A stretch of DNA of 64,000 nucleotides from Candidatus Berkelbacteria bacterium CG10_big_fil_rev_8_21_14_0_10_43_13 (GCA_002773985.1 PEZW01000018.1:34240-98239); one strand, 5' to 3'; positions 3,123 through 57,860 are shown, counted from the first letter of the stretch. Translations and numbers: made by a program. Notes: generated by a model from the letters alone, not told the origin.

Positions 3123-5753
3123 CTACTTAATAACAATGTTTACTAATTTCTTCGGTACAACGATTGTTTTGACAATTTCATTCCCAGCAAGTATTTTCTT
3201 GATTTTTTCAGTTCCAAGTCCTAGCTTTTTCATTTCCTCGTCTGAAATAGCTGAATCAACCGAAATTTTATCACGAACTTTTCCATTGACCTGAATAACT
3301 ACTTCAATTTTGTCGAATATGAGATATTTTTTGTCTGGCTCAGGCCATTTTTGCATAGTTAAATCGCTGTGTATTACACTTTCATACAATTCCTCGGCAA
3401 TGTGCGGCGCAACGGGAGAGAGTAAAAGTATGAACTTTTCATAAGACTTTGTGGAAATTGAGCCTATCTTTTCAACTAAATTATTGAACTCCATCAATTT
3501 CGAGACCACCGTATTCATCTGAAAATTTTCTAGATCATTGGTCACGCCAGTAATCGTTTGGTTCAATTTGACCAGCAACTCTGTCGGATCAACTACGTTT
3601 TCTTTAACCAGTTCCTGATTTCGCCAGACACGCTTCAAAAAACGATAGACGCCCTGAACCCCAGCCATATTCCAGGCCGATTCCTGATCGTATGGACCGA
3701 TAAACATAACATAAGCGCGCAAAGTATCAGCACCAAATTCAGCGACAATCTCATCAGGATTTATCACGTTACCAAAAGACTTACTCATCTTGCGCCCATT
3801 AGGACCAAGGATGATACCGTGGGCGATTCTCTTGGCATAAGGCTCTAAAGTTGGTACGACGCCAATATCATAGAGAAATTTATGCCAAAAACGTGAATAG
3901 AGCAAGTGCAGTGTCGTGTGTTCCATCCCACCATTATAGATATCAACCCCACCTCCGCTCTTCGAGCTACGCGCGGCATCGCCGGCGTCCAGCCAATATT
4001 CCAACTCTTTGGCATGTTTGGTAAAGATATTCGAACCACTTTTAACTTTTGACTTTAAACTTTTAACTAATGTGTAAGCCAAGTAGTACCAACTCGAGCC
4101 CGCCCAGTTTGGCATGGTGTCCGTTTCTCTCTCGGCCCTGCCACCGCATTTCGGACAAGTCGTCACGACCCAATCTGTGATTTTGGCAAGAGGGGATTCA
4201 CCGGTATCTGATGGTTCATAATTGTCGACAACCGGCAATTCCAGTGGCAGTTGATCATCGGGCAGAGGAACACGACCGCATCCGCCAGTTGGCGGATCAC
4301 AATGAACGATCGGGATTGGCTCGCCCCAGTAATGCTGGCGGGAAAAAATCCAGTCGCGAAGTTTGTAGTTTGTAGTAAATTCACCGGCACCGATACTTTT
4401 TAACTTTTCAGTAATTTTGATCTTGGCTTCATCTGATGACAGTCCGTCAAATTCACCCGAATTAATTAAGATTCCATAGTCAACAATCGCTTTGTCTAAA
4501 ATTTCTGATTTATGATTCAAAATTGAAACGACTTGTTTGATCGGGATATGGTGTTTCTTGGCAAATTCATAATCGCGTTGATCGTGAGCCGGGACACCGA
4601 TGACAGCACCAGTCCCATAGCTGGTCAGGACATAATCAGCGACCCAAATCTCAATATGTTCACCATTGATCGGGTTGACGGCATAAACGCCATAGCATTT
4701 GACACCGGTTTTATCTTTTTGTAATTCAGTTCGCTCTAGTTCTGTTTTTTTCGCCGCCACTTCGACATATTCCTTGATCTCATGATAGTTTTGAATATGA
4801 TAGCCAAGTTTTTCTAAAATCGGGTGCTCTGGTGAAACAACGACAAAAGTTGTGCCAAAAAAGGTATCAATTCGAGTTGTATAAAATTCGATTTCTTCGT
4901 CGTGAACGGTATTACTAAAACCCTTGACCTCAAATCGAACATTAGTACCGGTCGAGCGACCGATCCAATTGATCTGTTGAGTTTTGATTTTATCCAAGTA
5001 ATCAACAGTTTCAAGGTCATCAACCAAGCGGTCAGCATAAGCGGTAATTCGAAGCATCCACTGTTTTTGCATTCTCTTCTCAGTTTCCGTGCCACAACGC
5101 TCGCATTTACCGTCAACAACTTCTTCATTGGCCAGATTTATCTTGCATGATGGACACCAATTGACCGGCATCTCAGCGCGAAAGGCAAGCCTAGGAGTAT
5201 GGTAATCATCATCGGCAACTTCGATTAATTTTCCATTTTTAATTCCATGTTTGTAAAATTGCAAGAAAATCCACTGAGTCCAGTGATAATATTCTGGATC
5301 AGTCGTGTTTATCTCACGCTTCCAATCAAATGAAAAACCAAGCGAGTGGATTTGCTTCTTGAAATTTGCAATATTATCAGCTGTCGCTTTTTGCGGTTTT
5401 ATTTTATTTTTTATAGCATAATTTTCTGTTGGCAGACCAAAAGCGTCCCAGCCGATCGGAAACATGACATTGTATCCCTGAAGCCGTTTCATCCTACAAT
5501 AAGCGTCAGAGGCGCCATAACCCATCAAGTGACCGACATGCAGCCCCGCCCCGGATGGATAGGGAAATTCAACCAAATGATAATGCTTGGGTTTATCGTC
5601 AAAATCAGCAGACTGACCGTATTTGTTTTTTTGCCAAATGTCTTGCCATTTTTTTTCGATGACACGAAAATCATACTCCTGCTTGTCGTCCGTAGCCTTG
5701 GCGGAGGAGGGCCACTTTTTCTCAATTTCGTGAAAATTGTATTTGTCTGTCAC
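3123..5753 (-). CDS. leuS: Leucyl-tRNA synthetase (GTG start)
   Basis: HIGH motif (HVGHLMGYGASDAY), KMSKS motif, editing CP1 domain and a zinc-binding Cys cluster. Length 876 aa. Confidence 0.95.
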   Translation of the reverse strand: MTDKYNFHEIEKKWPSSAKATDDKQEYDFRVIEKKWQDIWQKNKYGQSADFDDKPKHYHLVEFPYPSGAGLHVGHLMGYGASDAYCRMKRLQGYNVMFPIGWDAFGLPTENYAIKNKIKPQKATADNIANFKKQIHSLGFSFDWKREINTTDPEYYHWTQWIFLQFYKHGIKNGKLIEVADDDYHTPRLAFRAEMPVNWCPSCKINLANEEVVDGKCERCGTETEKRMQKQWMLRITAYADRLVDDLETVDYLDKIKTQQINWIGRSTGTNVRFEVKGFSNTVHDEEIEFYTTRIDTFFGTTFVVVSPEHPILEKLGYHIQNYHEIKEYVEVAAKKTELERTELQKDKTGVKCYGVYAVNPINGEHIEIWVADYVLTSYGTGAVIGVPAHDQRDYEFAKKHHIPIKQVVSILNHKSEILDKAIVDYGILINSGEFDGLSSDEAKIKITEKLKSIGAGEFTTNYKLRDWIFSRQHYWGEPIPIVHCDPPTGGCGRVPLPDDQLPLELPVVDNYEPSDTGESPLAKITDWVVTTCPKCGGRAERETDTMPNWAGSSWYYLAYTLVKSLKSKVKSGSNIFTKHAKELEYWLDAGDAARSSKSGGGVDIYNGGMEHTTLHLLYSRFWHKFLYDIGVVPTLEPYAKRIAHGIILGPNGRKMSKSFGNVINPDEIVAEFGADTLRAYVMFIGPYDQESAWNMAGVQGVYRFLKRVWRNQELVKENVVDPTELLVKLNQTITGVTNDLENFQMNTVVSKLMEFNNLVEKIGSISTKSYEKFILLLSPVAPHIAEELYESVIHSDLTMQKWPEPDKKYLIFDKIEVVIQVNGKVRDKISVDSAISDEEMKKLGLGTEKIKKILAGNEIVKTIVVPKKLVNIVIK

Positions 5754-5831
5754 TTTATAAACTTTCCAACTTTATGAACTTTATGAACTAATCTAGTAAT
5801 AATTTATCACTTATTCAGTGCAAATTCAATT

Positions 5832-5864
5832 AAAAAAACGGCTTACACCGTTTAATTTTGGTGG
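5832..5864. terminator. Bidirectional intrinsic terminator (AAACGG-cttaca-CCGTTT flanked by an A-run and a T-run) carrying a tRNA-CCA-end remnant (TGGTGG). Left copy of a 32-bp direct repeat.
   Basis: Hairpin 5836-5853 with a T-run after it and an A-run before it. The 32 nt at 5833-5864 are identical to 10322-10353. Confidence 0.55.
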
Positions 5865-6046
5865 TGTGTTTTAAATGAAGCTCGAACTTTTTTCGAACAA
5901 AATATTAAATAAATATTTTGGTTCCAATTTTGTAATGACCCGCTCGCGCTTCGCTCCCTAAATGTTGCAATGCGGTTCGGGCAAAAAGGAAGGGGTGTAG
6001 GGAGGGAATTTTTGCCCGATAACAGGTGGGGCGAGGGGGAGAAAAA

Positions 6047-7063
6047 TTAGTGACTTATCGGCAATTGCGGAAGTTCCTTTGCTTCGGCAATCATGCTGTT
6101 TCCAGTGATTATTTTACCTATTTCCATTCTAACAGTTTGTACATTATTGTGAATAGTGCAGTATATTTTATATCTATCCATCCAATTCTTATTATGATCT
6201 TTGATTTCCAAAAGCATCAAATTATATGCATCCTCTGCCTTACTCATTGCGTCTGACATATGAATTCTGAACTCACCTGTTTGCATATATTTTAGAATAG
6301 CTTTACCCTTTTCTTCTAACTTGTCTTTGGTCAGTTTTAATTTGTGCATTTCTAAAAGCGCGTTTCTAAGTAAAAAGGCAATATCAAGTAGGCCCATGGG
6401 GTCAATAATGATGATATCGTCTTCAATGAAAAATTTTGACTTTCCTTCTTTAATAGCATGAGTTACGATCACGGCATAATTCGCTTTTGCTTCTTCCTGA
6501 TGCCTTTTTACCTCATTGATAAATGAATTTTGATATGTCGCAGTCTTCTTGCATTCATACAAAATGCTACCAATATTCTCACCGTTATTTTTGATATATT
6601 GGATCGCATCACCTTTTTTTCCCGTTGGCCTAATCTCATCCTCAGGAAAGTTTTCCGTCAATAATTTAATAACTTCTTTTTCATAATCAAAACCAGCTGT
6701 TTGTGGAGTTCGTCCCTCTTTGAGTTGTTTCTCAAGAAGTGCGATTTTACCATTCGATACTTGTATTGCTTTCGCTTGGTTTTCGATTAATTTGCTCATC
6801 TTTTCTCTTTCGCGTTTTTCCTTTTCGACTCCTTGTTTAACACCGGATTCAAGCGCGAGTTTAGACATCTTTTTTAAATCGATTTTGTGCTTAGATTCCA
6901 AATCTAACTTTTCTTTTTTAGCTTTTTCAAGCTGTTTTTGGTTTTCCTTAATTTGTTTTTGCTGATCTTCCCACTGACCAACTATGGAAATCCATTTTTC
7001 CTTTGTCAAAATACTTTTGCACAAAGGACATAAAAAATCATTTTGCTGTTCGATGTTACTCAT
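6047..7063 (-). CDS. Zn-ribbon/coiled-coil protein with a C-terminal PD-(D/E)XK-like nuclease motif (DUF2130/RmuC-like)
   Basis: N-terminal CPLC..(C) ribbon, a long Lys/Glu-rich coiled coil, and a C-terminal GDAIQYI...ILYECKKT (D..ExK-like) block. The family assignment is by recollection of architecture, not a database hit. Confidence 0.45.
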   Translation of the reverse strand: MSNIEQQNDFLCPLCKSILTKEKWISIVGQWEDQQKQIKENQKQLEKAKKEKLDLESKHKIDLKKMSKLALESGVKQGVEKEKREREKMSKLIENQAKAIQVSNGKIALLEKQLKEGRTPQTAGFDYEKEVIKLLTENFPEDEIRPTGKKGDAIQYIKNNGENIGSILYECKKTATYQNSFINEVKRHQEEAKANYAVIVTHAIKEGKSKFFIEDDIIIIDPMGLLDIAFLLRNALLEMHKLKLTKDKLEEKGKAILKYMQTGEFRIHMSDAMSKAEDAYNLMLLEIKDHNKNWMDRYKIYCTIHNNVQTVRMEIGKIITGNSMIAEAKELPQLPISH

Positions 7064-7105
7064 AGTTTCCTCAATTCATTATTTAAGACCGTCCCTGTGC
7101 TTAAT

Positions 7106-7279
7106 CTAGTTTTTGGTTTTATCGACCAAAACATATACCTGACCTGCCTTTGGAGTGGGTGGAAGCGGCTCGCCCGTTACTACGGTGCGTTCCTTTCCGG
7201 TTTCTCCCCCTCTCGGACCAATAATTTCGTATTGGCCAGAGCGGGTGGCAGTTTGGCCGGGTTTGAAAGTCTGTTTCAT
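7106..7279 (-). CDS. YjzC-like small protein (57 aa; absent from the ORF track)
   Basis: Translation MKQTFKPGQTATRSGQYEIIGPRGGETGKERTVVTGEPLPPTPKAGQVYVLVDKTKN, with a GGAGG Shine-Dalgarno 5 nt upstream of the ATG. The FKPG...G.Y...G..G pattern recalls the Bacillus YjzC family. Confidence 0.55.
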   Translation of the reverse strand: MKQTFKPGQTATRSGQYEIIGPRGGETGKERTVVTGEPLPPTPKAGQVYVLVDKTKN

Positions 7280-7392
7280 GAGACCTCCAGTTTATTAATT
7301 AGGCAAGTTCGACATTCTTACCTGCTGATTTGCAGCCAGTCGTCATCTGCTCGCAGAGGTAAACAGGGGCGGTCTTACTAATTGTCAGGCCA

Positions 7393-7422
7393 CTTGACAC
7401 TTTCCAAACGTTTTCGATATAC
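7393..7422 (+). promoter_or_regulatory. Putative sigma70-like promoter for the LexA-MTase gene (TTGACA-18-TATACT)
   Basis: TTGACA at 7393-7398 and TATACT at 7417-7422, upstream of the AAGAGGA RBS and the ATG at 7468. A TTCGA...TCGAA inverted repeat overlaps the -10. Confidence 0.3.
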
Positions 7423-7467
7423 TTAAAATGTAATCGAAAATAAATCGAAAGTCAAGAGGACAATCAA

Positions 7468-9012
7468 ATGCTCACCAAAAGACAAAAACAAACACTTGAG
7501 TTTATCAAGTCATACATCAAAAAAAATGATTTTGCTCCCTCCCTCGAAGAAATAAAAGCCCATTTAAAACTCTCGTCGGTCTCCACCGCACATCATCATG
7601 TTAAGGCTCTTGAAGATCAAGGCTATTTAAGAAAAGAAGATAATGTAGCTCGTGCCATTGATGTAGCTGAACCAGAACAAATGATTCAGATCCCAATAAT
7701 GGGTCTTATCGCGGCTGGTTTCCCTATCGAAGCTATTGAACAGCGAGAAACCATAGCAATACCAAAAACAAAATTACCAAAATCAGGTCAATTTTATGCA
7801 CTAAAAGTAGCTGGCAATAGTATGGTGGAAGAGAACATCAACGATGGAGACATCGTTGTAATAAAACAACAGGATCAGGTTGAAAATGGACAAAAAGCAG
7901 TCGCCTTGATAGACAATTCTGAGGTTACACTTAAAAAAATATATAAAGAGAAGTCATGTATTAGACTACAACCAGCAAACCATTTGGTGAAACCAATGTA
8001 TTATAATGCTGAAAGGGTTGCCATTCAAGGAATCTTGATTGATGTTGTTAGAAATACGCAAGAAGACTTTTCTGTTAATATTGATCTTAATAACACTTTA
8101 AACAATTCAGAATATATCCAACCGAATGCTATTATATGTGGGGATGCTTTGGATATGTTAAAAAAAATAAAACCAAACTCAATTGATTTAGTGCTTTCGG
8201 ATATACCTTATGGAATTTCACTAGATGAGTGGGATGTTCTTCATTCAAATACAAACTCGGCACTCTTAGGCCAATCTCCTGCCCAGATTGGAAAAAAAGC
8301 TTTTAAGAGGCGTGGCAAACCAATCAATGGGTGGTCAAGCGCTGACAAAAATATACCTCTTGAATACCAGCAGTGGTGCTACTCTTGGGGAAAAAAATTA
8401 TTTCCACTTGTTAAGGAGGGTGGTAGTGTTTTTATTTTTGGTGCTAGACGTACAATACATCGAGCTGTTATTGCACTAGAAGATAGCGGTTTTTTGGTAA
8501 GAGACGTACTGGCGTGGGAAAAACCAAACGCTCATCACCGAGCACAAAGTTTGAGTAAAATTTTTTATAACAGAGGATTATACGATGTCGGTGAAAAATG
8601 GGAAGGATGGAAACTAGGCAATTTAGCTCCGAAATATGAACCCATAGCCTGGCTTTTCAAACCATACAAGATTACAATTGCCGACAATGTGTTGAAAAAT
8701 AAACTTGGTGCTATGAATATTGAAGCATGTTTGATAGGTGGGAAATCCCCAACTAATATTTTAAGATATGGTTTCGATAAAAATGAGTCAGGGTTTCACG
8801 AGGCTCAGAAACCAGTGAAGCTATTAGAATACTTGATTAAACTCGTTACAATTAAAGGCCAAACTGTGCTGGATCCATTTATTGGCTCCGGGTCAACCCT
8901 AGTTGCAGCAAAACGATTAGACAGAAAATATATCGGCTTCGATAAATCAGATGAGTACTGTAAAATATCCAATCAACGAATAGATGAAGACAATCATGAT
9001 CCAGAGGTTTAA
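7468..9012 (+). CDS. LexA-like repressor (wHTH plus S24 autopeptidase) fused to a beta-class N6A/N4C DNA methyltransferase. This is the M subunit of a Type II R-M system.
   Basis: Residues 1-197 are a complete LexA paralog: DNA-binding domain, an IAAGFP Ala-Gly cleavage site, catalytic Ser in GNSM and catalytic Lys in TLKK. It is roughly 45% identical by eye to the canonical lexA at 57861. Residues 200-514 carry MTase motif IV (SDIPYG) before motif I (VLDPFIGSGSTLVAAKRLDRKYIGFD), the PF01555-like beta-class order. Confidence 0.75.
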   Translation: MLTKRQKQTLEFIKSYIKKNDFAPSLEEIKAHLKLSSVSTAHHHVKALEDQGYLRKEDNVARAIDVAEPEQMIQIPIMGLIAAGFPIEAIEQRETIAIPKTKLPKSGQFYALKVAGNSMVEENINDGDIVVIKQQDQVENGQKAVALIDNSEVTLKKIYKEKSCIRLQPANHLVKPMYYNAERVAIQGILIDVVRNTQEDFSVNIDLNNTLNNSEYIQPNAIICGDALDMLKKIKPNSIDLVLSDIPYGISLDEWDVLHSNTNSALLGQSPAQIGKKAFKRRGKPINGWSSADKNIPLEYQQWCYSWGKKLFPLVKEGGSVFIFGARRTIHRAVIALEDSGFLVRDVLAWEKPNAHHRAQSLSKIFYNRGLYDVGEKWEGWKLGNLAPKYEPIAWLFKPYKITIADNVLKNKLGAMNIEACLIGGKSPTNILRYGFDKNESGFHEAQKPVKLLEYLIKLVTIKGQTVLDPFIGSGSTLVAAKRLDRKYIGFDKSDEYCKISNQRIDEDNHDPEV

Positions 9013-9022
9013 ATTGAAAATT

Positions 9023-9877
9023 TTATTTTAGTCCAGATATTTTTCTAATCTGAATTAGGCGATTATCAAGCTTCTCTGCCTTAATAAGTAACTCAATTGC
9101 TTTTTCTTTAGTTAGTGATGAAATTTCAGAAATTTTATTCTCGATATAAGCTATCTCTTCTTTCGCCATTCTTGTTAGCGCCACCTGCTCAACTTTTTTA
9201 AATCTACATAATTCTTTATTCGAAATCGAGAGAATTTTACAGATGGAGCTATCAATGGCTTTCCAATATAAGCTAGCATCTTTCTCCCCTTTGAGCTTTT
9301 CTCCTGATAGCCACAATCCCTTGTAGTCTAAGTTACCGCAATTGGGGCTAGACAATATGCAATATAAATGAATATATGAAAACAAAGTAACATTTTTTGC
9401 TGTTGCTTGTCTGTATATTTGACTACTATTTTTTGGGTACTGATACAGCGGCGATACAAGGCAAGCAAAGTCTTTATCTTTTTTCCATTTATCCAATGCT
9501 TCTACTTTAAAATCTTTTTGATTCTTTGCGGTTCTGCTTAATCTAAATAATTTAGCATCAGCGACTATTGTATAGTTTTTTGTTTCACCCTCAACATCTG
9601 CAGAGTCTGCTCTTTCTTTCAAGACTTTTGCGTTTAAACCCATAAATGAAAGCGCCCTCGCTAATAAAACATCAGAATACTTGGAGTATATTTTTTCCTC
9701 AGTCGAATCGTGTGAAAATGACTCAGGAATAATACCGCACTCAAGAAGATGAAGCATAACTTCTTCTTTGGTAAACTTCTCGACTATTGAGATTATCCTT
9801 TCACTATACTCAGTAAAAGAAAGTGGCTCATCAGAAATTTTAGAAATAAAATTTATAATTTCAATTCTTTTCATCAA
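9023..9877 (-). CDS. Type II restriction endonuclease, HindIII-like (PD-(D/E)XK)
   Basis: The block ADVEGET...YTIVADAKLFRLSRTAKNQKDFKVEALDKWKKDKDFACLVSPLYQYPKNSSQIY matches my recollection of the R.HindIII catalytic region (D..D-A-K). It overlaps the C-protein gene by 17 nt, which is characteristic of C-R operons. Confidence 0.6.
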   Translation of the reverse strand: MMKRIEIINFISKISDEPLSFTEYSERIISIVEKFTKEEVMLHLLECGIIPESFSHDSTEEKIYSKYSDVLLARALSFMGLNAKVLKERADSADVEGETKNYTIVADAKLFRLSRTAKNQKDFKVEALDKWKKDKDFACLVSPLYQYPKNSSQIYRQATAKNVTLFSYIHLYCILSSPNCGNLDYKGLWLSGEKLKGEKDASLYWKAIDSSICKILSISNKELCRFKKVEQVALTRMAKEEIAYIENKISEISSLTKEKAIELLIKAEKLDNRLIQIRKISGLK

Positions 9878-10079
9878 AAAGATCCTTTATATTTAATTTA
9901 AGAGATTTAGAAATTTTTTCAATATTCTCCAAGGTTATATTCTTCTCCGCTCTCTCAATCATCCCGATGTAAGTCCGGTGAACACCAGCAAAACCGGCAA
10001 GCTGCTCTTGCGATAGACCTTTCTTCAATCTTTCTTCGCGAACTTTGTCGCCAAATTTTTTTAGAATTTCTTTTTTCAT
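9861..10079 (-). CDS. Controller (C) protein of the R-M system (XRE-family HTH, 72 aa)
   Basis: Small HTH_3 protein (LSQEQLAGFAGVHRTYIGMIERAEKNITLENIEKIS). Its stop overlaps the REase start, and tandem palindromic boxes lie immediately upstream. Confidence 0.7.
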   Translation of the reverse strand: MKKEILKKFGDKVREERLKKGLSQEQLAGFAGVHRTYIGMIERAEKNITLENIEKISKSLKLNIKDLFDEKN

Positions 10080-10094
10080 ACAGATTAAATATAC

Positions 10095-10140
10095 AGATAT
10101 TGCTAACTTTAGTTCTACATACTATAGTTAGCATATAAAA
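10095..10140 (-). promoter_or_regulatory. Putative C-box operator pair (GCTAACT ATAGTATGTAG AACTAAAGTTAGC)
   Basis: A 7-bp outer inverted repeat GCTAACT/AGTTAGC encloses two ACT-N2-AGT cores (ACTATAGT and ACTAAAGT), 20-40 nt upstream of the C-gene ATG. Confidence 0.4.
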
Positions 10141-10321
10141 AGATAAACAAAAGGGGTTTCACTGTCTTTCGCGCGGCGGGAGGGAGGGCAAGTGAAAGTA
10201 AATAATCCGCCCCGCCCACAAAAAGCCCTACTTCGCTGAAGCTACGAAGGAGGCGCCGAGAGCGTGCGCATTCCCTCCCCATACCCCTCATTGCTCACAC
10301 CGAATAAAATTTAGAGCAAAT

Positions 10322-10353
10322 AAAAAACGGCTTACACCGTTTAATTTTGGTGG
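10322..10353. terminator. Bidirectional intrinsic terminator plus the CCA end of the adjacent tRNA-like fragment. Right copy of the 32-bp direct repeat.
   Basis: Identical to 5833-5864. Hairpin AAACGG/CCGTTT with flanking A-run and T-run. Confidence 0.55.
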
Positions 10354-10400
10354 ACCCTAGGAGACTCGAACTCCTGACCTAGCCGATAGATCGGCTCGCG
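10348..10400 (-). pseudogene. Truncated tRNA-like 3' fragment (anticodon arm with a 6-nt loop, T arm AGGAG-TTCGAGT-CTCCT, acceptor 3' strand, ACCA). There is no 5' acceptor or D arm.
   Basis: The reverse complement reads ...AGCCGATCTATCGGCTAGGTCAGGAGTTCGAGTCTCCTAGGGTCCACCA. No complementary 5' acceptor strand (AGGGTCC complement) exists upstream. Confidence 0.45.
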
Positions 10401-10414
10401 AATTTGTTTTTATT

Positions 10415-10491
10415 TGGTGGACCTGACCGGGCTTGAACCGGTGACCTCCTCGCTGCCAGCGAGGCGCTCTAGCCAACTGAGCTACAGGCCC
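10415..10491 (-). tRNA. tRNA-Ala (anticodon GGC), CCA encoded
   Basis: Hand-folded cloverleaf: acceptor GGGCCTG/CAGGTCC with the G3:U70 Ala identity pair, anticodon stem CCTCG/CGAGG, loop CUGGCAG, T arm ACCGG-TTCAAGC-CCGGT. Confidence 0.9.
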
Positions 10492-10645
10492 ATTAAAGAA
10501 AAACAAATGGCCCAACTAAGCTAAGGGCCCAATGTTGTCTGAATACAATTCTAGCACAAAAATCGTCAATCGAGAAGAGCATTGAAGTGCGTTGATTGAT
10601 TTCTGTTTTGCGATATAATAATGACATACTTATTTTGGAGGGAAT

Positions 10646-11839
10646 ATGCCGGATCAGGGGATACTAGAATATATCCGTGCCGAGAAGGCGCGTGGTGTCG
10701 ATGCTGAGACAACAAGAAACGAACTCTTGAAAGCCGGCTGGAAGGTCAGTGATATTGAGGTCGCTTTTCGTGCTATGACACCGGAGCCGACCGTAGAGAG
10801 TCACCCGACTGCCGTGACGGCTACTGATTTTTCGAAACTTACCGAACACAAACCATCACCAACAACGATCGCCTTGCAATCAGTTCCGAAATTCAAGTCG
10901 AAGAGATTGATCTTCGAGCTGTTTGCCGTGATCCTGATAGTTCTAGCCGGCGGGGGAATCACTTATGGATATTATTATCACCTCTCACCTTATCTGGTAC
11001 TGAACAAAAGTATGGGCAAGTTATCTGAAGTCAAGACCTTTGAATATTCTCTCACAATCTCAAACACTGACACATCAAACAAATATGACAACTTCACTCT
11101 ACAGTCCAGAGGCGTCGAAGATATCACTGATTTGAATAACACCAAAAGCTCGATCACTCTGAGTGGCACTTCGGCCGATGATAGCACCTTTACCAATCCG
11201 ATCGGATTTCAAATTGATTACCGCAACATTAGCCACAATATTTACGCCAAAGTAGACAAACTTGATGGACTCGAAGACCTGGCTGCGCCCATCTTCGATA
11301 AATGGATTAAGTTTGATTTAACTCCGATCAAGGAGCAATATGATCTCGACAAAGTTGACGAGCCAGTAGCTGGCAGTAAGGATGCATCCAAGATTTCGTC
11401 TGATCAGAAAGATAAATTGTATAAAGCGCTGAAGGCCGATAAAGTCTTTGACTTTTCAGAAAGATTGCTCAATGAAAAAGTAAATGGTGTCGATGCAACT
11501 CACTATCAAATCACTCTGAACAAAGAAGGTTTTCTAGAATTTTACACCGACGCCGCAAAAATTCTGTTTGACAGAGAGTTTACAAACAATGATATCAAAT
11601 CTATGAGGCAAGATTTACGAGTAATTAATTCCGCCGACATAGAGATTTGGATCGGCAAGAATGACTCACTGCCATATAAAATAGTCGGATCATCGCAAAT
11701 CGTCGATCCCAAGACATCTAAAATCACCGGCAGCTCGACCCTGACGCTGAATTTCAAGAATTTCAACAAATCGGTCACTGTCGCAACTCCTACCGATACA
11801 ATTTCGTTCGAAGAAGCCTTCGGCCTTCTCTTCAAGTAA
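10646..11839 (+). CDS. Hypothetical membrane-anchored protein (one TM helix near residue 95)
   Basis: Long ORF preceded by a TTGATT-16-TATAAT promoter-like sequence and a GGAGGG RBS. No recognisable catalytic motif. Confidence 0.5.
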   Translation: MPDQGILEYIRAEKARGVDAETTRNELLKAGWKVSDIEVAFRAMTPEPTVESHPTAVTATDFSKLTEHKPSPTTIALQSVPKFKSKRLIFELFAVILIVLAGGGITYGYYYHLSPYLVLNKSMGKLSEVKTFEYSLTISNTDTSNKYDNFTLQSRGVEDITDLNNTKSSITLSGTSADDSTFTNPIGFQIDYRNISHNIYAKVDKLDGLEDLAAPIFDKWIKFDLTPIKEQYDLDKVDEPVAGSKDASKISSDQKDKLYKALKADKVFDFSERLLNEKVNGVDATHYQITLNKEGFLEFYTDAAKILFDREFTNNDIKSMRQDLRVINSADIEIWIGKNDSLPYKIVGSSQIVDPKTSKITGSSTLTLNFKNFNKSVTVATPTDTISFEEAFGLLFK

Positions 11840-29245: not shown

Positions 29246-29288
29246 GCCGAAGTGCCTGCCTGCCGGCAGGCAGGGCGGAATTGGTATA
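29246..29288 (+). pseudogene. 5' part of a second tRNA-Leu(CAA)-like gene (acceptor plus D arm), interrupted by a 20-bp perfect palindrome (29255-29274)
   Basis: With the palindrome removed, the sequence is GCCGAAGTGGCGGAATTGGTATA, against GCCGCGGTGGCGGAATTGGTATA in the intact tRNA-Leu (21/23 identical). Confidence 0.5.
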
Positions 29289-29299
29289 ACCTATTATAT

Positions 29300-29539
29300 A
29301 TGTATTTTGTCTATGTATTAAAAAGTACAAAAAGGAATTATCATTATATTGGTATTAGCAATAATTTATCTCGAAGAATAAATCAACACAACAAGGGTTA
29401 CAACAAAACAACTAAGCCTTACACACCTTTTAAATTAATTTACAGTGAAAAGTACCCTGACCGTGTCTCAGCCAGAACTAGAGAAAAACAATTAAAAAGT
29501 GGTTGCGGTCGTGAATTTATTCGAAAAATAGATATTTAA
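29300..29539 (+). CDS. GIY-YIG nuclease-domain protein (about 80 aa, UPF0213/Slx1-like)
   Basis: MYFVYVLKSTKRNYHYIGISNNLSRRINQHN matches the GIY-(10-11)-YIG motif plus the conserved Arg and Asn. The ORF-track upstream extension (from 29252) runs through the palindrome and is unlikely to be coding. Confidence 0.7.
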   Translation: MYFVYVLKSTKRNYHYIGISNNLSRRINQHNKGYNKTTKPYTPFKLIYSEKYPDRVSARTREKQLKSGCGREFIRKIDI

Positions 29540-29569
29540 ATAATTTGATTAGCGTCTTGTTCATTTTGG

Positions 29570-29655
29570 GCCGCGGTGGCGGAATTGGTATACGCGTACG
29601 ACTCAAAATCGTATTCCCTCAAGGAATGTGGGTTCGATTCCCACCCGCGGCACCA
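29570..29655 (+). tRNA. tRNA-Leu (anticodon CAA), long variable arm, CCA encoded
   Basis: Hand fold: acceptor GCCGCGG/CCGCGGC, anticodon stem TACGA/TCGTA with loop CUCAAAA, variable hairpin TTCC-CTCA-AGGAA, T arm GTGGG-TTCGATT-CCCAC. Confidence 0.9.
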
Positions 29656-36238: not shown

Positions 36239-37186
36239 ATGAGCACTCACTGTCAAATGATGGGCATCGATCTGTCGTGTTTTAGTCAGAATATTAAAGA
36301 GAAAAGTAGTTTGTTTATCCAAATTTTCATCAATGGTTTAGTCGCTGGCGCAATCTACGCTCTGATCGCGTCTGGTTTTTCGTTGATTTATTCGACCAAT
36401 AAATTTGTTCATTTTGCCCACGGCACCGTCGCGGTTTGGGGTGGTTATCTTCTGTACTGGTTTTATTCACTTTTAGGACTGGACTTTTGGCTCGCCGCTG
36501 TCCTGACAATCATTTCGACCGCTATCATTGGATTTTTACTCAATTTACTTTTTTACAAACCACTTAGAAAAAGGAAATCGAGTTCGTCGATTTTATTGAT
36601 CGCCAGCGTCGGACTTTTAATTTTGCTGGAATCACTTATTCAAATTTTCTTCGGAAATAATGTCAAAACAATTGGGTTTGTCCAGTCAAGAACGGGCATC
36701 TCGATTGCCGGTGGCTTAATCACGCCACTTCAAATCATAACAATCATCAGCGCGGTCATCCTTTTTATCTTTCTGACATGGTTTATGAATAAAACCAAGA
36801 CCGGCAAGGCGATGAGAGCTGTCGCCGACAACAAGGACGTGGCCGAGATCGTCGGGATTTCAGCAGAAAAAATTTATACTTGGTCTTTTGTAGTCGGCTC
36901 GGCTATCGCCGGCTTGGCCGGTATTTTGATCACACTTGAATACAATCTAACACCGACAATGGGAACAAACTTGATGATCAAAGGCTTCGCCGGCGCCATC
37001 ATCGGCGGCATCGGCAGCGTTCCTGGCGCTATCGCCGGCTCATTTTTTCTCGGTCTGGTCGAAAAATTCGGCATCTGGTTTTTACCTTCTGGTTTCCAAG
37101 ATGCTATTGCCTTCATTATTTTGTTTATTTTTCTATTATTTAAGTCAACTGGATTATTTACGGTCAAGAAAGAGGCAACAAAATGA
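36239..37186 (+). CDS. Branched-chain amino acid ABC transporter permease (LivH-like). True start possibly the TTG at about 36311.
   Basis: LivH-like N-terminus (IQIFINGLVAGAIYALIASGFSLIY) and 8-10 TM helices. Confidence 0.75.
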   Translation: MSTHCQMMGIDLSCFSQNIKEKSSLFIQIFINGLVAGAIYALIASGFSLIYSTNKFVHFAHGTVAVWGGYLLYWFYSLLGLDFWLAAVLTIISTAIIGFLLNLLFYKPLRKRKSSSSILLIASVGLLILLESLIQIFFGNNVKTIGFVQSRTGISIAGGLITPLQIITIISAVILFIFLTWFMNKTKTGKAMRAVADNKDVAEIVGISAEKIYTWSFVVGSAIAGLAGILITLEYNLTPTMGTNLMIKGFAGAIIGGIGSVPGAIAGSFFLGLVEKFGIWFLPSGFQDAIAFIILFIFLLFKSTGLFTVKKEATK

Positions 37187-38055
37187 TCTCGAGCTATTTT
37201 GGCGGATTACTGATAATGATTTCGATTTACTTGATTTTGGCACTGTCACTTCAACTCGCACTTGGCTTTTGTGGTTTGTTTAATCTCGGGTTTGTCGGCT
37301 TCTACGCTATCGGGGCTTATGCTTCCGCTCTTTTGGCTTTGTCCGGCCAACCGTTTTGGTTTTGCTTGCTCACCGCTGCTCTGGTACCAACAATCTTTGC
37401 TTATATACTTTCGACCGCAACCAATAAATTAAAAGGGGATTATCTCGCACTGGCAACGATGGGGTTTTCATTTGTGATCTACGCTGTCACTCTCAACTGG
37501 ATTGGACTGACCAAGGGTCCACTTGGACTACCCGGGATTCCGCGACCACAATTTTGGGGTATAGATTTCAACAACGACACAAACTTTTTAATTCTCTCTG
37601 CTCTGATCGCAATTTTAACTTATTTAATTCTACACAAAATTGCTTCATCGCCGTTTGGTAAAACACTCGAAGCCATCAGAGATGACGAATTGGCAGCCAA
37701 GAGCTTAGGTAAAAAGACAGCCACTGCCAAAAGCCTGGCCTTGATGATTTCAGCTTTTTTTGCTGGCATCGCCGGCTGCTTACTGGCATCTTATCTTTCA
37801 TACATCGATCCAACCTCTTTTATGTTTGTCAACTTGATTCCTATCCTAACCATTGTCGTTATCGGCGGACTTGCCTCTCTGCCCGGTACTGTCTTTGCAA
37901 CTATAATAATTGTCTTACTTCCTGAGCCGCTCCGCTTCATCGGCTTGCCATCATCACTGATCGGTCCGGGACGCCAATTGCTCTATGCCCTGTTTTTACT
38001 TTTAATACTTCTTTACAAACCAAAGGGGTTTTATGGAAAGGTTGAACTTGAGTAA
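37183..38055 (+). CDS. Branched-chain amino acid ABC transporter permease (LivM-like)
   Basis: Polytopic membrane protein with a LivM-like signature (LGFCGLFNLGFVGFYAIGAY). Start overlaps the upstream stop. Confidence 0.8.
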   Translation: MISSYFGGLLIMISIYLILALSLQLALGFCGLFNLGFVGFYAIGAYASALLALSGQPFWFCLLTAALVPTIFAYILSTATNKLKGDYLALATMGFSFVIYAVTLNWIGLTKGPLGLPGIPRPQFWGIDFNNDTNFLILSALIAILTYLILHKIASSPFGKTLEAIRDDELAAKSLGKKTATAKSLALMISAFFAGIAGCLLASYLSYIDPTSFMFVNLIPILTIVVIGGLASLPGTVFATIIIVLLPEPLRFIGLPSSLIGPGRQLLYALFLLLILLYKPKGFYGKVELE

Positions 38056-38782
38056 TATTTTGGAAATAAAAAATCTTAAGCGGTCATTTGGCGGCGTCAA
38101 AGCGGTTGACGGCTGTAGTTTTGAAATTGAGTCCGGCAAAATTATTGCCATGATAGGTCCAAATGGTTCAGGCAAGACAACCGTCTTTAATTTGATTTCC
38201 GGAATTTTATCTGTAGACTCAGGCAAAATAATCCTTGACGGATCCAATATCACTGATAATTCAGTTGAAGAAAGAGCCCGGTTGGGTATCTCGAGAATGT
38301 ATCAGCAATCGCGGCTGTTCAAAAATCTAACCGTCAAGGAAAATCTGTTGTTGGTGCTCGATCAGAGAAATTTTAATTTCTTTGCCAGGTCTAAGCCATC
38401 GACAGAACAGACAGAACAAATAAATGAAATTTTGGATTTATTTGAACTCAACAAAAAAATAAATATGCCGGTCAAAACTCTCAGCTTCGGTCAACGCCGA
38501 CTGATTGAAATTGCCCGAACATATCTCTTGCCACACAAAATTATGCTTCTCGATGAGCCGGTCGCCGGTGTTACGCCACATTTGCGAAACGAAATTTCAA
38601 AATTCTTAACCAAGCTTAAGGATGAGGGAGAGACTATTCTAATTATTGAACATGATATGAACTTTGTGTACAATTTAGTTGATGAGGTGGTGGTCATGGA
38701 TGCAGGTAAAATAATCGCACATGGCAATCCGGTTGAGATCGAGAAAAATCAAAAAGTCAAAGAAGCTTATCTCGGTGCATAA
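38033..38782 (+). CDS. ABC transporter ATP-binding protein (LivG-like)
   Basis: Walker A (GPNGSGKTT), signature (LSFGQRRLIEIAR), Walker B (LLDEPVAG). Confidence 0.85.
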   Translation: MERLNLSNILEIKNLKRSFGGVKAVDGCSFEIESGKIIAMIGPNGSGKTTVFNLISGILSVDSGKIILDGSNITDNSVEERARLGISRMYQQSRLFKNLTVKENLLLVLDQRNFNFFARSKPSTEQTEQINEILDLFELNKKINMPVKTLSFGQRRLIEIARTYLLPHKIMLLDEPVAGVTPHLRNEISKFLTKLKDEGETILIIEHDMNFVYNLVDEVVVMDAGKIIAHGNPVEIEKNQKVKEAYLGA

Positions 38783-38809
38783 ATGAATCTAGGCACCTAT
38801 CCGTCATTG

Positions 38810-38861
38810 CGAGCCAAGCCGATGAACATCGGCTGGCACGGCAATCTATGACTTTCGAAAT
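38810..38861. repeat. Second copy of the GTCATTGCGAGCCAAGCCGATG palindromic element
   Basis: Matches 35345-35397 with 2-3 mismatches. Confidence 0.45.
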
Positions 38862-38958
38862 GCAGAACTCAATTTATTAACATATTTTCCGATATATCAG
38901 ACAAGATGGAAATAAAATTTCTAAAATTTATGCAGAATTAATTTAAGAAGGTGGAGGA

Positions 38959-40143
38959 ATGGACAAAAAAGAAGAAGTGGAAGAACAGAAAAAAACCAAC
39001 TGGTGGCTACCAATCGGTTTAGTTATTTTATTGGTTGTATTTATCGGCGGGTTGTCGTGGTGGCAACAAAATAAAACGCCAAAGACCAATATTAAAATTG
39101 GAGTTATAGCACCACTGACAGGCGTAGCGGCACTTTATGGTCAGGGTTCGCTCGACATGATCAATATGGCTGTTGAAGAAATTAACAAAGCAGGTGGCAT
39201 CGACGGGCGAAATTTGAGTGTAGTTGCTGAAGATGGTAAATGTCAAGCTGATCAGGCCGTGATTGCTGCAAATAAGTTGATTCAGACTGACAAGGTTAAA
39301 TTTATTCTCGGTGGTCATTGTAGTAGTGAAACTGCCATAATCGCACCAATCTTGGACAAAAATAAAGTTTTTGGATTGGCCGGTGTTTCGACAGCCCCAG
39401 GAATTTTGGATAAATATTCTTATGTTTTTCGAACAAGTCCATCGAGTTCTGACCAATCAGCACAAATTGCACAGCTGGCTTATAATACTTACAATCTTAA
39501 AACAATCGCTACAATCACAGAACAGACAGCGTACGCAAAAGGTATTACTGATGATTTTATAAAAGATTTTGTCGCTTTGGGTGGAACAATTATCGACTCC
39601 GAGGAATATGCTTCAGGTCAAGCCGGTTTTCAAACCGAGTTAACAAAGATAAAGGCCGCCAAACCTGACGCGCTGTTCGTCTCTCCACAGGGGCAACCAA
39701 CTGCAATAGAAATTGCCAAAGAAATAAAAACTCTCAACATTACTGGAACACTTCTGGGTAATTCAGTTTTTGTTGGAAAGACGGTATACGCACAATCCGG
39801 TAATGCTCTCCCTGACGGAACATTTACTGTTGCTCCGTATGCTAATTTAACATCCAAAAATACAGCTGCATTAATTTCAAAATACAACGCTAAATATGGC
39901 AAGGATATTCCTTACAACAACTTTTTTGTTGGTGCGGCTTATGACGGTGTTTATATGCTAAAAAATGCATTGGTAAAATGCGGCGAAGATTCAACGTGTG
40001 TGAAGGATTACTTTTCTTCAATTAAAGATTACAACGGATCCGTTGCCACCTTTTCATTCAAGTCAAATGGTGACGCCGACATCAATAATTGGTACGAGCT
40101 GAAGTTGGTTGGTGGTAAGGAAGTATACTCAAAAGTTCAGTAA
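38959..40143 (+). CDS. Periplasmic substrate-binding protein (LivJ/K-like, type I PBP) with an N-terminal membrane anchor
   Basis: TM anchor, then IGVIAPLTGVAALYGQG and KFILGGHCSSETAII, typical of Leu/Ile/Val-binding proteins. Confidence 0.8.
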   Translation: MDKKEEVEEQKKTNWWLPIGLVILLVVFIGGLSWWQQNKTPKTNIKIGVIAPLTGVAALYGQGSLDMINMAVEEINKAGGIDGRNLSVVAEDGKCQADQAVIAANKLIQTDKVKFILGGHCSSETAIIAPILDKNKVFGLAGVSTAPGILDKYSYVFRTSPSSSDQSAQIAQLAYNTYNLKTIATITEQTAYAKGITDDFIKDFVALGGTIIDSEEYASGQAGFQTELTKIKAAKPDALFVSPQGQPTAIEIAKEIKTLNITGTLLGNSVFVGKTVYAQSGNALPDGTFTVAPYANLTSKNTAALISKYNAKYGKDIPYNNFFVGAAYDGVYMLKNALVKCGEDSTCVKDYFSSIKDYNGSVATFSFKSNGDADINNWYELKLVGGKEVYSKVQ

Positions 40144-40219
40144 TACAAAAATGATTTAATCTGCTCAAAAAGCTCATCTCTGGGCTTTTTTGAGTAGTTT
40201 GAGATATAATAAACTCATC

Positions 40220-41053
40220 ATGAAAAAGTCAAATTCCATAATCCTATTTGATCAAAAGAAAGTTCGCCGCACTTGGAATAAGGAGAGAGAGCTGTGGTAT
40301 TTTTCAGTCGTTGATGTTATTGAAATTTTAACCAATTCGACTATCCCAAAACGATACTGGAGTGATTTAAAAAATAAACTAAAAGACGAAGGAAGTGAGG
40401 TGTACGAAAAAATCGTACAACTGAAGTTTGTTGCCTCTGACGGTAAAAAATACGCGACAGACTGCTTTTCTACGGAAAATTTACTTCGTCTTGTTCAATC
40501 GATTCCCTCACCAAAGGCTGAGCCGTTTAAACTATGGCTGGCAAAAGTCGGATACGAGAGAATAGAAGAAACTGAGGATCCAGAGCTTGCTTTTGATCGG
40601 GCGATGAAAATTTATTTGCGAAAAGGTTATTCAAAGGAATGGATAAACCAGCGCTTGAAAAGTATTGAAGTACGCAAAGAGCTGACCGATGAATGGCACG
40701 AACGAGAAATGAAAGAGGGGCTGGAATACGCGATTTTAACGGATGAAATCACAAAAGCTTGGGCGGACAGGAGTGTCAGAGATTACAAAAAGCTGAAAAA
40801 ACTCAAAAAAGAAAATCTGAGAGATAATATGACCAATCTAGAGCTGATCTTGAATATGTTGGCCGAAGCCTCTACGATGGAAATTTCCAAAAAACAGAAG
40901 CCGACCGGATTACAAAAAAACAGGGAAGTGGCTCGAAAAGGTGGTTTAGCCGCAAAAAAAGCGCGATTAGAAGTGGAAAAGCAAACAGGTGAAAGTGTTG
41001 TGACTTCAAAGAATGCCAAAGTGTTGCGTCACGAGAACAAGAGACTAAAATAA
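40220..41053 (+). CDS. DNA-damage-inducible protein D-like (Bro-N domain) protein. Start taken at MKKSNS.
   Basis: Bro-N-like N-terminus (ELWYFSVVDVIEIL...SPKAEPFKLWLAKVGYERIEE) with a DinD-like size and layout. Located inside the liv operon. Confidence 0.55.
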   Translation: MKKSNSIILFDQKKVRRTWNKERELWYFSVVDVIEILTNSTIPKRYWSDLKNKLKDEGSEVYEKIVQLKFVASDGKKYATDCFSTENLLRLVQSIPSPKAEPFKLWLAKVGYERIEETEDPELAFDRAMKIYLRKGYSKEWINQRLKSIEVRKELTDEWHEREMKEGLEYAILTDEITKAWADRSVRDYKKLKKLKKENLRDNMTNLELILNMLAEASTMEISKKQKPTGLQKNREVARKGGLAAKKARLEVEKQTGESVVTSKNAKVLRHENKRLK

Positions 41054-41054
41054 T

Positions 41055-41759
41055 ATGCTAAAAATATCCTCTCTAAAATCCGGTTATGATGGTATGGAAA
41101 TTCTTCGCGGGGTTGATATTTATGTCGATCCGGGCGAGATTGTGGCATTGATCGGTACCAATGGAGCAGGCAAGTCGACATTACTCAAAAGCATTTTTAA
41201 CTTGGCAGATATCTATGATGGCCAAATTATTTTTAAAGACAAAGACATTACAAATCTACCAACACACGACTTGATTAGGGAGGGTATTAGCTTTGCTCCA
41301 CAGGGCAGACTGGTTTTTTCCGACATGACGGTGTTCGAAAATCTAGAGATGGGAGCTTTTATCTTTACCGACAAGGAGCTGGTCAAAAGAAATATTAAAG
41401 ATATATTTGAAAAATTCCCAACCCTTAAAGCAAAGCAGAAACATAACGCATCTACCCTTTCAGGGGGACAACAGCAATTGCTCTCAATCGCTCGTGCACT
41501 TGTTCAAAATCCTGAGTTACTACTCCTTGATGAACCATCACTTGGTCTTTCTCCAATCGCGATGAAAGAAGTGTTTAGTAAAATTGTTGAAATTAATCAT
41601 AGAAGTGTGTCAGTTTTAATTGTCGAACAAAACGTTAAACAGGCTGTCTCGATTGCAAACCGTACATACATACTTGAAAATGGGCGTGTCGCGCTTGAAG
41701 GAAATAAAGATATTTTAAAAAATCCCGAGACCAGCCAAATTTATTTTGGTCTAAAATAA
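41055..41759 (+). CDS. ABC transporter ATP-binding protein (LivF-like)
   Basis: Walker A (GTNGAGKST), signature (LSGGQQQLLSIAR), Walker B (LLLDEPSLG). Confidence 0.85.
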   Translation: MLKISSLKSGYDGMEILRGVDIYVDPGEIVALIGTNGAGKSTLLKSIFNLADIYDGQIIFKDKDITNLPTHDLIREGISFAPQGRLVFSDMTVFENLEMGAFIFTDKELVKRNIKDIFEKFPTLKAKQKHNASTLSGGQQQLLSIARALVQNPELLLLDEPSLGLSPIAMKEVFSKIVEINHRSVSVLIVEQNVKQAVSIANRTYILENGRVALEGNKDILKNPETSQIYFGLK

Positions 41760-57633: not shown

Positions 57634-57860
57634 GATTATATTAGCGTTTTTCAATTTTTTGTCAATCTTATTAAAAGTTTTCCACAGGCCTTTGTTTGAC
57701 TTTTGTTTGGGTTATGTTCGATAATGTATAAGTAAACAGACCGAACACAATCGGATTTCAATTCTACCGACACTAAATATTAATCCGCATTTGTATGTTT
57801 GTATTAGATTTGTCCCCCAAAGGGGGATCTCCCCTTGGGATGATAATTTGTAGATATCTT

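Follow-up and report, generated by a model that had tools for sequence, protein, structure and literature searches.

A 4.5-kb restriction-modification islet between perfect 32-bp repeats at the tRNA-Ala-leuS junction of a Candidatus Berkelbacteria genome

Remnants of integrative elements that keep att-type flanks and have no recombinase of their own are familiar from the cis-mobilizable elements (CIMEs) of Streptococcus thermophilus and from the pseudo-staphylococcal cassette chromosome (pseudo-SCC) elements of staphylococci, which lack ccr. Classical serine integrases, to our knowledge, rarely use tRNA genes. Units made of a restriction endonuclease (R) and a modification methyltransferase (M) have been described in tRNA genes, where they carry an integrase and are flanked by long direct repeats (Furuta, Abe & Kobayashi 2010, PMC2853133). 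They also define the class of "insertion with long target duplication", in which R and M genes lie in an insert of <20 kb that is bounded by a repeat of >30 bp and holds no other mobile-element genes (Nobusato et al. 2000; Furuta et al. 2010, PMC2853133). Here we analyse a restriction-modification (R-M) locus in 64,000 nucleotides of Candidatus Berkelbacteria bacterium CG10_big_fil_rev_8_21_14_0_10_43_13 (PEZW01000018.1:34240-98239), a member of the candidate phyla radiation (CPR); this whole 64-kb stretch is called the window. At 5865-10321, 4,457 bp with five open reading frames (ORFs) lie between two perfect 32-bp direct repeats. We find that these 4,457 bp are an insertion of foreign composition at the 3' end of a tRNA-Ala gene. 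On balance we favour the view that they are an acquired, recombinase-less defence islet, belonging to a family found at tRNA 3' ends and inserted between tRNA-Ala(GGC) and leuS when a circular form recombined at the tRNA CCA.

The insertion at tRNA-Ala

The features that define the insertion site are as follows.

5833-5864, minus strand: left direct repeat, an exact match; on the minus strand CCACCA plus an intrinsic terminator, with the leuS upstream region next
10322-10353, minus strand: right direct repeat, an exact match, running on from the native tRNA-Ala 3' remnant
10348-10380, minus strand: remnant of the native tRNA-Ala(GGC), 33 nt (variable loop, T arm, acceptor 3' strand and CCA), from its match to locus L099
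10381-10414, minus strand: 34-nt spacer from the intact tRNA-Ala to the remnant, with a small hairpin AGCCGA/TCGGCT (sequence and fold)
10415-10491, minus strand: intact tRNA-Ala(GGC) (ARAGORN; Rfam 65.6 bits), a second or replacement copy
3123-5753, minus strand: leuS, native, downstream of the insertion site (Pfam; synteny kept with loci L098, L099 and L100)

The 32-mer, AAAAAACGGCTTACACCGTTTAATTTTGGTGG, is identical at 5833-5864 and 10322-10353, as an earlier reading made from the sequence alone had stated. Read on the minus strand, it consists of CCACCA, then AAACGG-TGTAAG-CCGTTT, which forms a 6-bp stem, and then a T run. A consensus scan made terminator-like calls at 10342->10325 and 5853->5836, and the hairpin was upheld by folding. 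Both copies thus combine a tRNA CCA end with a terminator, again as proposed; the tRNA contributes 6 nt, and the other 26 nt are the downstream terminator. No third copy was found in the 64 kb with up to 3 mismatches, and none of 100 shuffles produced a match. Among 189 fetched loci, the 26-nt core was present only in contigs of this locus and in the same two places. Scans with this 26-mer returned 0 matches in a metagenome contig collection and 0 in a viral contig collection, and the tRNA remnant had 0 matches in viral contigs. Outside the 32 bp, neither an 11/13 match lying 0 and 7 nt downstream of the two copies nor the 8-mer AGTTCGAG upstream of the repeats was significant against shuffles (p ~0.1). 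Independent assemblies of other samples recovered both junctions at 100% identity (left in L016 and L097; right in L002, L003 and L007). Hence, the structure is not an assembly artefact.

Next to the right repeat, the sequence-only reading had placed a truncated tRNA-like fragment followed by an intact tRNA-Ala. The fragment is real: on the minus strand 10348-10380 reads AGGTCAGGAGTTCGAGTCTCCTAGGGTCCACCA, its last six bases are the start of the repeat, and it is identical at 32/33 positions to the 3' end of the tRNA-Ala(GGC) of L099 (7799-7831). Neither ARAGORN nor Rfam called it, and the tRNA-Ala was the only RNA family that Rfam reported in 5400-10900. When aligned with the tRNA-Ala genes of three relatives, the intact gene differs from them throughout and shows compensatory changes in its stems. 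Since the remnant matches the relatives and the intact gene does not, the remnant is the native tRNA-Ala and the intact gene a divergent second copy, two points that the sequence-only reading had not made. The 5' half of the native gene is absent elsewhere in the window. The native tRNA-Ala seems to have been truncated and replaced by a foreign or divergent copy, and the presence of a divergent second tRNA beside a native remnant implies at least two events at the locus.

The relatives were chosen by their LeuS proteins, which are 73% (L098), 71% (L099) and 69% (L100) identical to that of the window. In L099, a POR/ferredoxin gene, tRNA-Ala(GGC), a hairpin terminator and leuS follow one another, all co-directional and in the same orientation as in the window; 169 nt separate the tRNA from leuS, and there is a single tRNA-terminator unit. 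By this comparison, the L099 arrangement is the layout that would be expected of the window without the islet. Because tRNA-Ala, terminator and leuS are contiguous in L099, and because the remnant matches the L099 tRNA, we conclude that the 4,457 bp are an insertion. The islet genes are missing from this position in all three relatives, which argues against their being ancestral there. In L098, a 520-aa ORF with Resolvase and Zn_ribbon_recom domains runs into the 3' end of tRNA-Ala(GGC), 122 nt from leuS. In L100, a GIY-YIG gene lies between tRNA-Ala(GGC) and leuS (region 7484-7882), and 20 bp of the tRNA 5' end stand on both sides of it as an exact direct repeat (7541-7560 and 7863-7882). With insertions beside the same tRNA in L098 and L100, the spacer is a recurrent insertion hot spot.

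The empty site that had been proposed as a check, with a single copy of the 32-mer between leuS and the tRNA-Ala locus, was not found. Exact-protein look-ups with the 397-aa neighbour, leuS, L32, the DUF2130 protein and the 100% LeuS cluster gave no empty-site contig, and all of the contigs obtained were of the same strain with the same junctions. The closest LeuS among 185,579 species genomes is only 56% identical, and a collection of 5.8 billion proteins held no LeuS relative between 73% and 100%. Many LeuS relatives in Patescibacteria (P0003, P0004, P0009-P0012 etc.) are 950-1200 aa long with an extra NUDIX domain (PF00293) and sometimes hydrolase domains; the window LeuS has neither kind of extra domain. 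Strain variants from three samples (L004-L006) carry an IS1595-family element at ~10580, 66 nt upstream of the 397-aa gene. To the left of this element the DNA is unrelated and a Fic gene is present; part of the population therefore has a rearrangement here.

The islet itself holds the following.

6047-7063, minus strand: DUF2130 protein, cargo (Pfam 5.6e-23; no PADLOC match)
7106-7279, minus strand: 57-aa ORF, weakly YjzC-like (Pfam 22.4 bits, under the 25-bit cut-off)
7468-9012, plus strand: LexA (DNA-binding domain and S24 peptidase) fused to an N6/N4 DNA methyltransferase (Pfam N6_N4_Mtase 1.7e-44)
9023-9877, minus strand: HindIII-family type II restriction endonuclease (Pfam RE_HindIII 4.8e-72; PADLOC REase_II)
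9861-10079, minus strand: C (controller) protein (Pfam HTH_3 6.5e-15; PADLOC Control_protein 1.3e-21)
10100-10137, no strand: C-box and divergent promoter region, with the palindrome GCTAACT...AGTTAGC; 38/38 identical to L105 2949-2986
10138-10321, no strand: GC-rich non-coding segment of 184 nt, at the site of the serine recombinase gene in homologous elements (sequence comparison)

The five ORFs are those that had been listed for the islet, the YjzC-like match being weak. An endonuclease, a methyltransferase of cognate type, a C protein and, ahead of the C gene, a palindromic C-box make the R-M genes a C-controlled type II system of the HindIII family. The islet is foreign in composition. 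Its GC content, 36.9% compared with 42.3% for the window, is lower than that of any other 4.5-kb stretch; by tetranucleotide distance it ranks in the top 2.5%; and M and R have a GC content at third codon positions (GC3) of 0.29, compared with 0.43 +/- 0.08. The check on GC and codon usage that had been suggested thus came out as anticipated. The HindIII site AAGCTT occurs 18 times in the 64-kb window, with ~19 expected, and so is not avoided. This may mean either a recent arrival or a specificity other than that of HindIII; avoidance as a sign of long residence was ruled out. A separate, ordinary-looking LexA ORF lies at 57795-58466 (judged by eye from its N-terminal sequence only).

Homologous cassettes, the arm and the GC-rich modules

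The LexA-methyltransferase fusion belongs to a family in Patescibacteria whose members are 62-69% identical. Homologous cassettes are identical to that of the window at 65% in M, 52-56% in R and 75% in C. Wherever the context was fetched, they share one order: tRNA 3' end, then a serine recombinase in antisense (present in some), then C, then R, with M facing them. Those adjoining tRNA genes other than tRNA-Ala are:

L102-L104 (Uhrbacteria): cassette at tRNA-Glu(CTC)
L105/L106: cassette at tRNA-Leu(TAA)
L107: cassette at tRNA-Thr(CGT), 27 nt from the R gene, with no recombinase and no C gene

In L102 and L105, a large serine recombinase of 511-534 aa (Resolvase, Recombinase and Zn_ribbon_recom domains) separates C from the tRNA and has an ORF that runs antisense into the tRNA. 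L105 2949-2986, the counterpart of the window C-box, ends 2 nt before the recombinase start codon. Because the two C-boxes are identical at 38/38 positions up to that point, homology stops at the expected start of the recombinase. The segment that follows in the window, 10138-10321, shows partial homology to the DNA that follows the C gene of L108 and L109. No tRNA linkage was seen for more distant LexA-methyltransferase fusions (32-52% identity); hence, the link to tRNAs is specific to the HindIII-type cassette family. Among viral-contig relatives of M there was nothing comparable except L190, with an R-M system beside a resolvase-like ORF. Fusions of LexA to methyltransferases of several types are frequent in metagenomes of Patescibacteria, and two IMG/VR contigs have them as well.

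The L105 element, M-R-C-recombinase, is flanked by a perfect 148-bp repeat (51-198 versus 4479-4332). This repeat starts at CACCA, the last five bases of tRNA-Leu, and includes that tRNA's GC hairpin terminator, a makeup like that of the window 32-mer. In two assemblies, an element of the L105 type has opposite orientations relative to rbfA-tRNA-Cys-tRNA-Leu, which may be a real inversion or assembler ambiguity. Since ambiguity across a 148-bp inverted repeat is equally possible, we did not use this "inversion" as evidence.

At the end of the islet opposite the intact tRNA, the left repeat adjoins a conserved arm.

5859-5904, minus strand: "P arm" ending in CCACCA, TATTTTGTTCGAAAAAAGTTCGAGCTTCATTTAAAACACACCACCA (alignment with L105 1-55 and L108 9786-9831)

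On the minus strand, the left repeat of the window is preceded by ...ATTTTGTTCGAAAAAAGTTCGAGCTTCATTTAAAACAC, and the non-tRNA copy of the L105 repeat by ...ATTTTTGCTAAAATAGGTTCGAGCTTCGTTGTAGAGATT. The ~45-nt arms of the window, L105 and L108 all end at CCA, with unrelated sequence beyond. The 11-mer GTTCGAGCTTC was found only at this site and in L105 among 109 loci. An nhmmer profile of the arm scored 3.5e-8 to 1.6e-7 on its three source sequences, which match by construction; its next three matches in 2 Mb of fetched DNA were L126, L127 and L128 (E 0.12-3.8), all of them LexA-methyltransferase loci. Since the arm is conserved across elements and the sequence after CCA is not, the arm travels with the element and the DNA past CCA is that of the host. 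The arm-CCA-host layout would then be an attR-type junction. In L108 (9786-9831), the arm and CCA are joined directly to sequence upstream of a C gene, and in L126 (871-916) directly to a serine-recombinase fragment; this arrangement resembles an attP or a circular junction in other elements. L108 and L109, which have the same M protein, part exactly after ...TATTGGC.

The arm also resembles a tRNA T loop, in a shifted register. In the arm, the motif GTTCGAG begins 23 nt ahead of the repeat; in the T loop of the tRNA remnant, the distance is 18 nt. Counted in this same manner, L105 has a shift of 4 nt. For L108 and L126, where the distance was taken from the motif to the terminal CCA, the shift is 5 nt by comparison with a standard tRNA. 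In serine integrases, the distance from the crossover to the distal motif, which the zinc-ribbon domain recognises, is 5 bp shorter in attB than in attP (PMC3783163). The 5-nt offset in the window matches this attP/attB shift, with a common sequence of 32 bp and not ~2 bp. By analogy with the one well-studied integrase from which the prediction is drawn (PMC3783163), in both partners the central dinucleotide would be the CC with which CCACCA, and so the repeat, begins.

Just inside the repeats are two GC-rich pieces.

5978-6018, no strand: GC-rich hairpin module CGGGCAAAAA...TTTTTGCCCG (fold), which holds the inverted-repeat core 5991-6009
10270-10288, no strand: inverted partner of the GC-rich core, in a degenerate copy of the module (17/19)

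Imperfect GC-rich inverted motifs had been pointed out here, and they stand: the 19-nt core at 5991-6009 matches 10270-10288 at 17/19 positions, where 0.02 matches are expected by chance. In the fold of 5978-6018 the left motif is the hairpin loop. Inverted homology between the GC-rich ends is confined to the 19-mer, and no such hairpin module was found in viral contigs. A homologous hairpin lies to the right of the C gene in L109. Another, in L128, is at the centre of 121-123-nt imperfect inverted repeats that bound a 5.6-kb islet (3263-9078) with no recombinase inside; the contig stops at the right repeat. The L128 islet encodes a cyclic-oligonucleotide-based antiphage signaling system (CBASS; a nucleotidyltransferase-domain protein, presumably the CD-NTase, and a Cap15 effector), a LexA-methyltransferase and an MvaI/BcnI nuclease. 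From this comparison, the GC-rich modules look like recurrent end pieces of this islet family.

Some further observations concern other sites. In the window, a Bro-N domain gene (40190-41053) lies inside an apparent branched-chain amino-acid ABC transporter operon (36239-41759) and suggests another small insertion. A 95-aa GIY-YIG ORF (region 29252-29655) is directly upstream of tRNA-Leu(CAA), and GIY-YIG genes beside tRNAs recur in this lineage. L107 holds an exact 20-nt direct repeat, CGAATCCCTCTTCCCCAACA (5979-6112), with copy 1 at the 3' end of tRNA-Gln and copy 2 114 nt downstream, another tRNA-end duplication in Patescibacteria.

Origin of the islet

That a formerly mobile islet has inserted at a tRNA end is well supported by the evidence above. 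In the favoured reading, the circular form would have recombined at the CC of the CCACCA end of the tRNA. The element arm, with its T-loop-like motif 5 bp farther out, would have been the attP half-site, and the T arm and acceptor end of the tRNA the attB half-site. Recombination would leave tRNA remnant, CCACCA and terminator at the right junction, and element arm, CCACCA, terminator and leuS at the left. On this model, the empty site is predicted to read ...TTCAATTA, the 32-mer, ACCCTAGGAGACTCG..., and the circle junction ...TTTAGAGCAAAT, the 32-mer, TGTGTTTTAAATGAAGC.... Complete members of the family have a large serine recombinase gene that abuts the tRNA 3' end and runs into it; in the window, this gene may have been lost later, or it may never have been carried, the enzyme acting in trans. 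The islet would now be a passive remnant, although deletion or mobilisation through the 32-bp repeats could still occur. Because the terminator is kept in both copies of the repeat, transcription of the tRNA is predicted to be insulated from the islet, and that of the islet from leuS.

Several findings weigh against this reading. None of the five islet ORFs (0/5) encodes a recombinase, tblastn with three serine recombinases matched only a tRNA antisense artefact and detected no remnant, and no recombinase was seen among the screened ORFs of the window; the sequence-only reading had likewise noted that an integrase is absent. The model leaves the duplication of the 26-bp terminator beyond CCA unexplained, and serine integrases exchange strands at a 2-bp overlap, usually without a long repeat. 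No palindromic partner half-site is visible downstream of CCA when the sequence is read by eye. The arm alignment consists of three sequences, and the next three matches are weak (E 0.12-3.8). No long repeat was found in the recombinase-bearing L102 element, and the 148-bp repeat of L105 is inverted, not direct. The recombinases of L098, L102 and L105 share only 20-29% identity with one another, so that to assume one common att logic is an extrapolation. Finally, with the nearest LeuS at 73%, there is no true empty site for comparison, and L099 is too distant to share the 32-mer. The earlier description of the repeats as a classic scar of site-specific integration is, then, upheld in part. A foreign islet does lie at a tRNA 3' end, and two of its homologues do have recombinases; but only 6 of the 32 nt are tRNA sequence, the islet has no recombinase and no close empty site was found. 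The 32-bp repeat probably has a site-specific origin, but this is not proven, as serine-recombinase chemistry does not explain the terminator duplication.

Could the duplication instead have been made without a recombinase? A break-repair or replication event on CCA microhomology might have copied a 26-32-bp target to both sides of the insert, in which case the link to recombinases would be incidental hitch-hiking. The islet has everything by which the long-target-duplication class was defined (PMC2853133): R and M genes inside, a length of 4,457 bp (<20 kb), a 32-bp repeat (>30 bp) and no mobility gene. The duplicated length varies, from 32 bp here to 148 bp in L105, with the start always at CACCA, and variable length is a hallmark of that class; the exact 20-bp duplication of the tRNA 5' end around the GIY-YIG gene of L100 shows that target duplication free of a recombinase does occur at this locus. 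However, the class has no known mechanism, and it does not predict an arm that ends exactly at CCA in several elements, a 5-bp shift in the register of the T-loop-like motif or the recurrence of homologous cassettes at four different tRNAs, each time at the 3' end. We therefore regard this origin as rather unlikely, though a serious contender. The repeats might also be older than the islet, left by an earlier duplication and partial deletion of the tRNA-Ala region, with the cassette landing between them by chance or by homologous exchange. Three tRNA-Ala-type 3' ends do stand in tandem (10415, 10348 and 5859), the divergent second tRNA shows that the locus has suffered other rearrangements, and the IS1595 variants (~10580) with their unrelated left flank point to ongoing rearrangement. 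Against this, the left copy is preceded by an element-type arm and not by tRNA sequence, a 32/32 identity that is lost abruptly outside (flanks p ~0.1) fits a single event better than old duplicates, and L099 has only one tRNA-terminator unit. Such an origin seems improbable.

The sequence-only reading had named two things that would refute it: a 32-mer found at many unrelated terminators of the genome, or enclosed genes that are ancestral at this position. On such an account, the 32-mer would be a common terminator that happens to follow two CCA-like ends, with ancestral genes in between. The 32-mer does resemble an ordinary intrinsic terminator, and the genome was examined over 64 kb. Nevertheless, two copies in that 64 kb and none in other fetched loci or in the scanned collections, together with enclosed genes that are foreign in composition and absent here in L098-L100, make this account very hard to credit. 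Further candidates were rejected. A transposon with target-site duplication does not suit a repeat as long as 32 bp or inverted motifs set back from the repeats by 126 and 33 nt; a module of the Xer/dif type has no likeness beyond the terminator palindrome; and for a group II intron or an IS200-type insertion at a terminator, there is no reverse transcriptase or TnpA.

A broader proposal can be made only tentatively, and we think it may well be wrong. The window islet could be a recombinase-less member of an undescribed family of CPR defence islets, whose large serine recombinases would use the T loop plus encoded CCA, nearly universal in tRNA genes, as a generic site, and whose marks would be a conserved pseudo-tRNA arm serving as the half-site of the element, GC hairpin end repeats and a CCA-anchored direct or inverted duplication, variable in length, of the host terminator, a product unknown from canonical serine-integrase chemistry. 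If true, a generic T-loop/CCA attachment site would explain insertion at tRNAs for Ala, Glu, Leu and Thr.

Comparison with described elements

Taken as a single locus, the islet is a fairly ordinary genomic-islet scar; the mobility of R-M systems, and repeats around them at tRNA genes, have been known before. It is also a rare, well-delimited horizontal gain of a defence system in Berkelbacteria, a CPR group in which mobile elements are poorly described; a literature search found no paper describing such islets in Patescibacteria. The recurring architecture of tRNA 3' end, large serine recombinase, C-R-M with a LexA-fused methyltransferase, CCA arm and GC-rich end modules suggests serine recombinases that target tRNA CCA ends. 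If so, tRNA CCA ends would form a new class of target, and the enzymes might be multi-site integrases, of interest to genome engineering. The CCA-anchored duplications of 26-143 bp would imply a junction-forming step outside both integrase chemistry and the long-target-duplication class.

R-M units at tRNA genes with repeats, and att-flanked remnants without a recombinase, are kinds of element that are already known. New here are the host group, a repeat that is mostly terminator and anchored on CCA, and the association with large serine recombinases whose ORFs run into tRNA 3' ends, together with a conserved pseudo-tRNA arm. Like a tRNA island, the islet has flanking repeats, one of them continuous with a tRNA 3' end, and a deviant composition, but it has no recombinase gene. 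Like a CIME, it has att-type repeats at both ends and no mobility genes inside. It encodes no protein that combines Resolvase, Recombinase and Zn-ribbon domains; such proteins are present in L102, L105 and L098.

With CIMEs and pseudo-SCC the islet shares a short cargo, att-type repeats and the want of a recombinase of its own; its position may also be a hot spot of related autonomous elements, and the one conserved arm suggests that the recombinase-bearing relatives would use the same type of site. With SCC, the family shares a large serine recombinase, the 3' end of a conserved gene as target and direct plus imperfect inverted repeats at the ends. Unlike CIMEs and pseudo-SCC, it has a CPR host, a tRNA CCA end as target and an R-M cargo with a LexA-fused methyltransferase. 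The tRNA-gene units of Furuta et al. are similar in being small R and M units at a tRNA gene, with direct repeats that include tRNA sequence and are read as site-specific integration. The islet differs from them in having no integrase and a repeat of 6 nt of tRNA and 26 nt of terminator, and the recombinases of its homologues are large serine recombinases, not tyrosine integrases. With the long-target-duplication class, it has in common a short R and M insert without mobility genes and a duplication of >30 bp whose length varies between events, whereas its own duplication starts from a tRNA CCA end, next to a conserved arm, and its homologues carry recombinases. Finally, the large serine integrases of phages (A118/LI, Bxb1, phiC31; PMC3783163) are matched by the Resolvase, Recombinase and Zn-ribbon proteins at the element end in the homologues, and possibly by a shared 7-8-nt motif whose distance from the junction is 5 bp less on the side of the host, as described for attB against attP; the islet departs from them in its 32-bp repeat and its missing enzyme.

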